64,000 bases of DNA from a virus (Duplodnaviria > Heunggongvirae > Uroviricota > Caudoviricetes), in the IMG/VR virus record IMGVR_UViG_2718218136_000001; one strand, given 5' to 3'. The notes under the pieces were generated by a model. It saw only the letters and a list, made by a program, of their open reading frames with translations. It was not told where the DNA came from and searched no databases. The translations under genes were made by a program, and so were the position numbers. Below, piece after piece: positions 41,552 through 42,787 of the stretch; the stretch's first letter is position 1; each line of letters opens with the position of its first letter.

Positions 41552-42787
41552 TTAATTACTGACAGTTTCAGGTTTCGGGAAACTGAACAGTAAATCACGG
41601 TAGTATTCGTATTGTTTCTGGCGCAACTCGATTTCACGCGGAAGACCTTCGGTGATGGAGTTAGTCAGGGTGTCGAAATTATCCAGAATCCGAACGATTT
41701 CAGACTGGATGGCAAGGGATTTTTCCGGATTATCCGGGCAGGGGATTGGGATTTTTTTTTGAGAATAATTACTAATCCATTGGCGTTTATGGTCTCCCTC
41801 TGCGAATTCACTTGGTAATGTATTGAGCCAATAGTAAACATATTTCAGTAAGGTTTTATTATCATCACATGATGTAACCATTTTCATAGCCGATGATTTT
41901 GCCTTAAAGTCAAAATCCACCCATTTATTAGCGGTGGTGAAATCATCAAAAATTATTACAGGTGCCTTTGATGCCTGATAAATACCATGAGTCTCATTTG
42001 TGTATCCAAGAATAAATGTTTTTCCGGCAGTAAGAACCGGGATGGTATATGTGTCGTGATAATCTTTTGCTTTTACCAAATACTTTGTTGGCTGTTCATA
42101 TTTGGTTATTTCCCCCAATGGCAACCACTCAACCTCAACCCCATCCAGCAATTTTTCCAGATAAATAGGTTTTTCCTGCTCCTCATCAAAACTCAACAAC
42201 TGGTCGCGATAGTAGTTGTACTGTTTTTTACGCATGTTAAGCTCAGCGGTAAGCTCAGCGGTAAGCTCAGCGGTAAGTGCAGTAAACTTATTCAGAATCC
42301 GAACGATTTCAGACTGGATGGCAAGGGATTTTTCCGGATTATCCGGGCAGGGGATTGGGATTTTTTTTTGAGAATAATTACTAATCCATTGGCGTTTATG
42401 GTCTCCCTCTGCGAATTCACTTGGTAATGTATTGAGCCAATAGTAAACATATTTCAGTAAGGTTTTATTATCATCACATGATGTAACCATTTTCATAGCC
42501 GATGATTTTGCCTTAAAGTCAAAATCCACCCATTTATTAGCGGTGGTGAAATCATCAAAAATTATTACAGGTGCCTTTGATGCCTGATAAATACCATGAG
42601 TCTCATTTGTGTATCCAAGAATAAATGTTTTTCCGGCAGTAAGAACCGGGATGGTATATGTGTCGTGATAATCTTTTGCTTTTACCAAATACTTTGTTGG
42701 CTGTTCATATTTGGTTATTTCCCCCAATGGCAACCACTCAACCTCAACCCCATCCAGCAATTTTTCCAGATAACTTAACTCGCTCAT
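41552..42787 (-). CDS. hsdS: type I specificity subunit HsdS with two identical target-recognition domains
   Basis: 411 aa; residues about 6-163 and about 212-369 are identical; central TAEL x3 repeat; conserved [17 protein letters not shown]-terminal region. Confidence 0.85.
41684..42163. repeat. direct repeat copy 1 (about 480 bp) inside hsdS
   Basis: DNA identical to 42293-42772, for example atccagaatccgaacgatttcagactggatggcaaggg... through ...caatttttccagata. Confidence 0.8.
42240..42275. repeat. 12-bp tandem repeat x3 encoding [12 protein letters not shown] in the hsdS spacer
   Basis: agctcagcggta x3; TAEL copy number sets the spacer length of the recognition site in EcoR124I/II. Confidence 0.8.
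42293..42772. repeat. direct repeat copy 2 (about 480 bp) inside hsdS
   Basis: Identical to 41684-42163. Confidence 0.8.

Follow-up and report, generated by a model that had tools for sequence, protein, structure and literature searches.

A natural single-chain HsdS of the EcoR124 family with the same target recognition domain in both positions, encoded on a P1-like phage-plasmid

What sequence would be read by a type I specificity subunit whose two target recognition domains (TRDs) are one and the same, and is such a subunit a natural gene or a product of assembly? The question is raised by an hsdS gene in a 64,000-nt stretch of DNA, here called the window, in which one TRD module occurs twice within a single open reading frame. 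We consider it likely that the gene belongs to an intact type IC restriction-modification (R-M) unit on a P1-like phage-plasmid, in which the GAA module of EcoR124I occupies both TRD positions, with GAA-N8-TTC as the predicted target.

The gene (41552-42787, minus strand) encodes a protein of 411 aa and was delimited from the list of open reading frames, Pfam and a full-length match to EcoR124II HsdS. It contains a direct repeat with an offset of 609 bp, with copy 1 at 42293-42773 and copy 2 at 41684-42164 (both on the minus strand). The original prediction had described an identical repeat of 480 bp (41684-42163 and 42293-42772); the repeat is indeed real and exact, but its length is 481 bp, one base more. 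Because it is exact over 481 bp, a chance origin is excluded. Copy 1 encodes residues 6-165, comprising an N-flank, a GAA-reading TRD and the first part of helix D1, as far as SEIVRIL, and copy 2 encodes the same module in the C-terminal position (residues 209-368). Each copy consists of a 13-residue N-flank, the whole TRD and the beginning of the helix that follows. The unique central segment (42165-42292, minus strand) encodes the remainder of helix D1 and the linker DEEQEKPI, and the unique 3' end (41552-41683, minus strand) encodes the rest of the conserved C-terminal helix D2 and the stop codon. Along the gene the order is MSELS, the module, the rest of D1 with three TAEL repeats, DEEQEKPI, the module again, and the D2 helix; the protein is laid out as an N-flank, GAA TRD and D1 helix with three TAEL repeats, the linker, and a second N-flank and GAA TRD followed by the D2 helix.

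Pfam detects Methylase_S twice in the protein. Together with the exact repeat and the intact hsdM-hsdS-hsdR set, this bears out the prediction of an hsdS with two identical TRDs. An AlphaFold2 (AF2) model has two equivalent halves, in each of which a TRD lies between a short and a long helix, and its best PDB match is EcoR124 HsdS (7bst_A). The model is of moderate confidence (pLDDT 68.9, pTM 0.55); as a prediction it confirms the HsdS fold, and on spacing it tells us nothing reliable. RefSeq labels the product only as "restriction endonuclease subunit S" (WP_059338147.1). Each TRD copy also contains an A9 homopolymer in QKK codons (42361-42369 in copy 1 and 41752-41760 in copy 2, minus strand), a possible slippage site at which a slip would truncate HsdS.

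The origin of the module can be read from the EcoR124 proteins. EcoR124II HsdS (7bst_A) matches the window HsdS from end to end (E 7e-156). Over residues 1-166 the window protein departs from EcoR124 HsdS only by L4M and N166D, with residues 5-165 unchanged; the C-terminal TRD of EcoR124II HsdS does not align as a homologue with the second TRD of the window protein. From the near-perfect match to the N-terminal half of EcoR124 HsdS, the 160-residue unit that is duplicated here can be identified as the GAA-reading TRD at the N-terminus of EcoR124I. The D1 and D2 helices of the window HsdS cross-match at 53-62% identity. EcoR124I and EcoR124II are type IC systems of plasmid R124, with nearly identical HsdM and HsdR proteins and the same N-terminal HsdS half with its GAA TRD and TAEL repeats. 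The EcoR124 C-terminal TRD, however, reads RTCG/CGAY, whereas the window HsdS has in its place a second N-terminal module, joined through DEEQEKPI and YLEKLLDGV.

The central spacer had been predicted to hold a three-copy TAEL tract, and it does: three in-frame 12-bp repeats at 42239-42274 (minus strand) encode residues 172-183, and Tandem Repeats Finder reports a period of 12, 3.3 copies and 100% matches over 42238-42277. The number of TAEL repeats is that of EcoR124II. The linker DEEQEKPI (42164-42187, minus strand; residues 201-208) precedes the second N-flank at a place where EcoR124I and EcoR124II have KEGE, and the linker ahead of copy 2 is 14 residues longer than that before the EcoR124 C-terminal TRD. 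The combination of DEEQEKP(I/V) and N-flank accompanies N-terminal-type modules at position 2, including those with other TRDs. The 3' end of hsdM was considered as a source of the linker, but the sequence is not derived from there.

The gene stands in a complete R-M unit with all three genes on the minus strand. The upstream hsdM (42784-44346, a 520-aa open reading frame, 518 aa in RefSeq) has the Pfam domains N6_Mtase (6.5e-121) and HsdM_N, and its product matches the EcoR124II M protein (7bst_D) with 1159 bits over residues 1-520. The downstream hsdR (38314-41430, 1038 aa) has HSDR_N, SWI2_SNF2, T1R_D3-like and EcoR124_C (2.1e-71) domains, and its product matches EcoR124 HsdR (2w00_A) with 2290 bits over residues 1-1038. 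The hsdM stop and hsdS start codons overlap as ATGA, and a gap of 121 bp separates hsdS from hsdR. A promoter-like site in this gap (41495-41524, minus strand; TTAACA-18-TATTTT, 9 of 12 consensus matches) may possibly serve hsdR, although as a match to consensus it is a weak candidate. The kinship of HsdM and HsdR, the EcoR124_C domain, the central helix with TAEL, the conserved C-terminal helix and the hsdM-hsdS-hsdR order are all features of type IC, the EcoR124 family, and the window hsdS is a natural single-chain HsdS of this family with the same TRD in both positions.

The EcoR124 systems are carried by R124, but the carrier here is a P1-like (IncY) phage-plasmid. Positions 36001-48000 of the window are 100% identical to an E. 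coli O177:H21 plasmid (NZ_CP016549.1, IncY, 126 kb), and the genes near the hsd unit include those of P1: phd/doc, pdcA, a DUF968 gene, lpa, terminase, icd, ant and the c1 repressor. Isolated P1-like phages also have hsdS genes of type IC, whose TRDs are different ones. Several other loci of the window were noted. There are two C4 antisense-RNA immunity modules, within 2246-5591 and 49778-51200. The first is a canonical P1 immI-kilA-repL array (C4 at 2367-2452, a1/b1 targets at 2246-2298, then icd-like, ant, kilA and a 281-aa open reading frame); the second adjoins c1 and has isrK (49778-49856) and C4 (49901-49988) followed by icd-like and ant genes. A sok antitoxin RNA at 5900-6074 (Rfam, 114.9 bits) implies a post-segregational killing locus of the hok/sok type besides phd/doc. 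A tRNA cluster (Asn-GTT, Thr-TGT and Met-CAT, at 23093-23246 and 24687-24762) is of the kind that P1-like genomes typically have.

An exact repeat of this kind could be the work of an assembler, the true gene having one TRD or two different ones. At 481 bp the tandem-type repeat exceeds the length of short reads, and closely related records have one, two or three copies, a variation of which assembly error could be part of the cause. The identical 1236-bp hsdS is, however, present in at least nine complete plasmid records, all circular and derived from unrelated hosts and laboratories, with isolates from human, poultry, fox and pig farm, and the same two-copy architecture recurs in two further allele lineages with flanks diverged by about 3%: lineage 2 (L004-L006, including an E. 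marmotae plasmid; 3.1-3.4%) and lineage 3 (P0003/L011). Moreover, a unique 128-bp segment lies in frame between the two copies, a junction that misassembly is unable to produce, and hsdS is single in the 64,000-nt window, where tblastn found no second TRD or hsdS fragment. Collapse of a repeat removes copies and does not create them. The duplicated-TRD hsdS is not an assembly artefact, an origin that we regard as scarcely credible, and the warning of a misassembled or collapsed repeat that came with the original prediction does not hold for this gene. The records in need of checking are those with one and three copies.

The two-copy form is rare. The counts of two-copy records rest on TRD-only queries, which returned 12 two-copy records and one three-copy record in PLSDB and placed the two-copy form in 7 of 5426 complete E. 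coli genomes (~0.1%), one of the seven being disrupted by IS1. A census of E. coli genomes by junction-spanning BLAST was also attempted and was discarded, as it was confounded by the joining of overlapping pieces. The exact 411-aa protein and the 614-aa protein of the three-copy allele (see below) are absent from a collection of 15 billion proteins.

What, then, would the protein read? In type I enzymes the antiparallel D1/D2 coiled coil inverts the TRDs and their order is immaterial; the interval between the methylated adenines is 7 nt with two TAEL repeats (EcoR124I) and 8 nt with three (EcoR124II and EcoDXXI) (Loenen et al., 2014). In the window HsdS two GAA TRDs would be inverted on the D1/D2 coiled coil, and with identical TRDs so arranged, M2S1 and R2M2S1 should, we infer, recognise a GAA palindrome. 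By the published spacing rules three TAEL repeats would give GAA-N8-TTC, and the window allele should read this target, N8 being an extrapolation. By the same analysis a two-TAEL sister allele should read GAA-N7-TTC, and a one-copy allele, as a D2-D2 homodimer like EcoDXXI deltaN, probably reads GAA-N7-TTC as well. The window itself contains 19 GAAN8TTC sites (22.9 +/- 4.5 expected) and 26 GAAN7TTC sites (23.3 +/- 4.6 expected); neither is depleted or enriched there. A literature search for methylome motifs of the form GAAN8TTC, GAAN7RTTC or their variants returned engineered enzymes only, in papers on EcoR124I_NT.

The engineered enzymes are the closest guides to this prediction. EcoR124I delta50 (2[GAA]) reads GAAN7TTC (Loenen et al., 2014), as does EcoR124I_NT (2[GAA]), and these enzymes are active as methylase and nuclease. 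Both use the same GAA TRD twice for a palindromic bipartite target, which agrees with the symmetric target of the original prediction. They are, however, non-covalent homodimers of TRD plus D1, held by a D1-D1 coiled coil with two TAEL repeats, unlike the window HsdS, a natural gene product in which one chain carries both TRDs, pairs D1 with D2 and has three TAEL repeats. As a single chain the window protein resembles the hybrids EcoRD2 and EcoRD3, whose S subunit likewise has GAA-type TRDs at both positions of one polypeptide. EcoRD2, [GAA]~[GAAY], reads GAAN6RTTC, and EcoRD3, [GAA]~~[GAAY], reads GAAN7RTTC (hybrids of Gubler et al., 1992, tabulated by Loenen et al., 2014). The two differ by two versus three TAEL repeats and by 1 bp in spacer, and the window allele together with the allele P0001 described below forms a natural three- and two-TAEL pair of the same kind. 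The hybrids take their second TRD from EcoDXXI (C-terminal, GAAY) and read GAAN6/7RTTC, whereas the TRDs of the window gene are identical at the DNA level.

The hybrids also raise the alternative that the window enzyme is functional on an imperfect palindrome, either GAA-N7-RTTC as for EcoRD3 or a target whose spacing is shifted by 1 bp by the longer linker. Besides the EcoRD3 target, that of EcoDXXI deltaN, GAAYN5RTTC, could be cited for it; EcoDXXI deltaC reads TCAN8TGA (Loenen et al., 2014). The 14 additional residues ahead of copy 2 point the same way, and a staphylococcal half-HsdS did not hold the expected spacing (Bower et al.). Because the simple rule failed in that experiment, the N8 spacing is uncertain. 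The C-terminal TRD of the window protein has, however, the sequence of the EcoR124I N-terminal TRD, and the homodimer of that TRD reads GAAN7TTC with no R/Y requirement. The Y of GAAY is a feature of the EcoDXXI C-terminal TRD, which need not be the same domain as the GAA module; no protein named EcoDXXI is in the homology list for the window HsdS. We hold an imperfect or shifted target to be quite improbable, and return to GAA-N8-TTC as the preferred reading.

The original prediction had also held that identical repeats make the gene prone to recombination. This is supported by sister plasmids whose backbones are 99.8-99.97% identical to the window, among which three-copy, one-copy, two-TAEL and IS1-disrupted forms of hsdS are found. 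The three-copy allele (CP099227.1, locus L002, 3001-4845) is an intact open reading frame of 1845 bp (614 aa) in which the GAA module occurs three times in identical form, and the plasmid is longer than those of its farm-mates CP099233 and CP099239 by exactly 609 bp. The two-TAEL allele P0001 (L009/L010, 6001-7224; GCA_053270235.1 and GCA_053234705.1) is the window gene minus one 12-bp unit, and its loci have the same P1-like neighbours; comparison of TAEL number among related plasmids, a check proposed at the outset, thus gave a difference of exactly one unit. Such a pair amounts to a spacer switch of the EcoR124I/II type that occurs naturally inside the GAA/GAA gene. A one-copy allele is present in CP010146.1 (L003), with a 1-nt frameshift. 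The extra T lies soon after the start, at about 3600-3628 (AGTTTATCTGG vs AGTTATCTGG), RefSeq annotates a shorter open reading frame of 199 aa, and the insertion may have arisen in sequencing or may truly inactivate the gene. In an otherwise window-type two-copy hsdS (L008, NZ_JCAPUC010000003.1), IS1B is inserted at 3448-4145 in the N-terminal TRD copy. An intact 208-aa half-HsdS is encoded on 74 contigs and two sister alleles of it on 60 and 31 contigs, counts that collapsed repeats in short-read assemblies may have raised.

These variants bear on whether the GAA/GAA allele serves its bearer at all. It might be a non-functional or transient by-product of TRD shuffling, either lacking activity or tolerated although a palindromic target is not selected for. 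Such a view would account for its rarity among complete genomes, for the existence of an IS1-disrupted copy and of a frameshift in one single-copy record, and for the larger number of contigs with the one-copy derivative than with the two-copy form; models of unequal crossing-over, in addition, require multi-copy intermediates. Against this, the open reading frame of hsdS is intact, as are those of hsdM and hsdR, the GAA/GAA architecture is shared by three allele lineages and occurs with two as well as with three TAEL repeats, and enzymes engineered to contain this TRD pair both methylate and cleave DNA. We consider it unlikely that the allele is such a by-product.

How the two copies have stayed identical is indicated by comparison of the lineages. 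Lineage 2 differs from the window gene by paired substitutions at gene positions 138/747 and 291/900, and in lineage 3 all five of the in-repeat differences are paired (43/652, 45/654, 113/722, 138/747 and 291/900). Between lineages, each in-repeat substitution is present in both copies; the chance of five independent hits at the same five sites and to the same bases is about 2e-14 by our own estimate. The copies within one gene therefore share a later ancestor with each other than with the copies of other lineages. From these sequences, the identity of copies within a gene is attributed to repeated duplication, or to homogenisation by unequal crossing-over or gene conversion. Identical direct repeats, the 13-residue left flank and a 22-residue right flank, border each TRD position, and homologous recombination at these flanks could move, duplicate, delete or triplicate a TRD; recombination there could also hold both copies identical.

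A more far-reaching proposal is that the 609-bp module and the 12-bp TAEL arrays constitute a RecA-driven specificity switch in P1-like phage-plasmids, including a possibly functional three-TRD HsdS. A clonal population would then shift among one to three TRD copies and two to three TAEL units at appreciable frequency, and the target would toggle between GAA-N7-TTC and GAA-N8-TTC, with the three-TRD form possibly off or altered. If true, this would produce heterogeneous restriction barriers and methylomes with no need for a dedicated recombinase, but we find it rather unlikely. Known forms of phase-variable hsdS do not describe the gene: the window holds neither a second hsdS fragment nor a relevant inverted repeat for a shufflon, and the TAEL repeats are in frame, which does not fit an SSR frameshift. 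No variant frameshifted at the A9 tracts was encountered.

The movement of TRDs between positions is not confined to this allele. Of 79 related two-TRD proteins (clusters), 63 carry the GAA module at position 1 and 16 carry it at position 2. The partner domains TRD04, TRD06 and TRD11 pair with it in both orders, P0007 and P0008 being one such pair. The left N-flank is found at residues 6-18 and 209-221 of the window protein, the 22-residue right flank is present at both positions, and these flanks surround other position-2 TRDs too. Direct repeats at both TRD positions and the occurrence of one- and three-TRD alleles are the marks of domain movement (DoMo), and the window gene is the GAA/GAA homo-combination of such a system. 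Swapped-order pairs of type IC HsdS with the same two TRDs (P0007/P0008, P0018/P0020, P0029/P0010 and P0027/P0134) were seen, and on sequence grounds the members of each pair should be iso-specific. These pairs suggest that enterobacterial hsdS genes of type IC commonly undergo domain movement.

In H. pylori, where domain movement was described, alleles with one TRD and an allele with three were also seen, and the central 12-bp repeats varied in number (Furuta et al., 2011). The H. pylori and S. pyogenes cases share with the present one the TRD-flanking repeats, TRDs found in either position, one- and three-TRD alleles and variable 12-bp repeats. Unlike those cases, the present system is an enterobacterial type IC system on phage-plasmids, with homo-TRD copies identical at the DNA level and sister alleles on near-identical backbones. 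Natural palindromic bipartite targets that arise from TRDs of the same specificity have likewise been known from NgoAV, the "Type I 1/2" enzymes and BstXI-type methylases, and the S subunit of M.BstXI is [CCA]~[CCA] in one chain. By 2013 NgoAV was the one natural type I enzyme known to have a palindromic target, but it acts through a truncated half-HsdS, whereas the window HsdS is a full single chain. The TRDs of BstXI are similar but not identical, and its partner is a Type II nuclease.

A literature search found no paper that describes the GAA/GAA single-chain hsdS allele. Its laboratory equivalents (delta50/NT and EcoRD2/RD3) were characterised decades earlier, its behaviour is predictable from the genetics of the 1990s, and the pattern of recombination fits a described mechanism; no new mechanism is involved. 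What the locus provides is a natural, single-chain version of the symmetric EcoR124I enzymes built in the laboratory, within the type I family that is best understood. Cryo-EM structures of the EcoR124 family exist. The sister plasmids form a natural allelic series, with one to three TRDs and two or three TAEL repeats, in which it can be tested whether coiled-coil length and D1-D2 versus D2-D2 pairing set the spacing of the target, whether a three-TRD HsdS is active, and at what rate specificity changes by repeat recombination on mobile elements. The position-swapping of TRDs known from Helicobacter operates in enterobacterial type IC systems on phage-plasmids as well. Finally, diverged GAA-like TRDs (YEQPTKYLV...DHKRQWISN) occupy both positions, with an ordinary short linker, in the more distant HsdS proteins P0006, P0009, P0043 and P0046 (Snodgrassella alvi and others), and their sequences suggest older homo-TRD duplications in other taxa.
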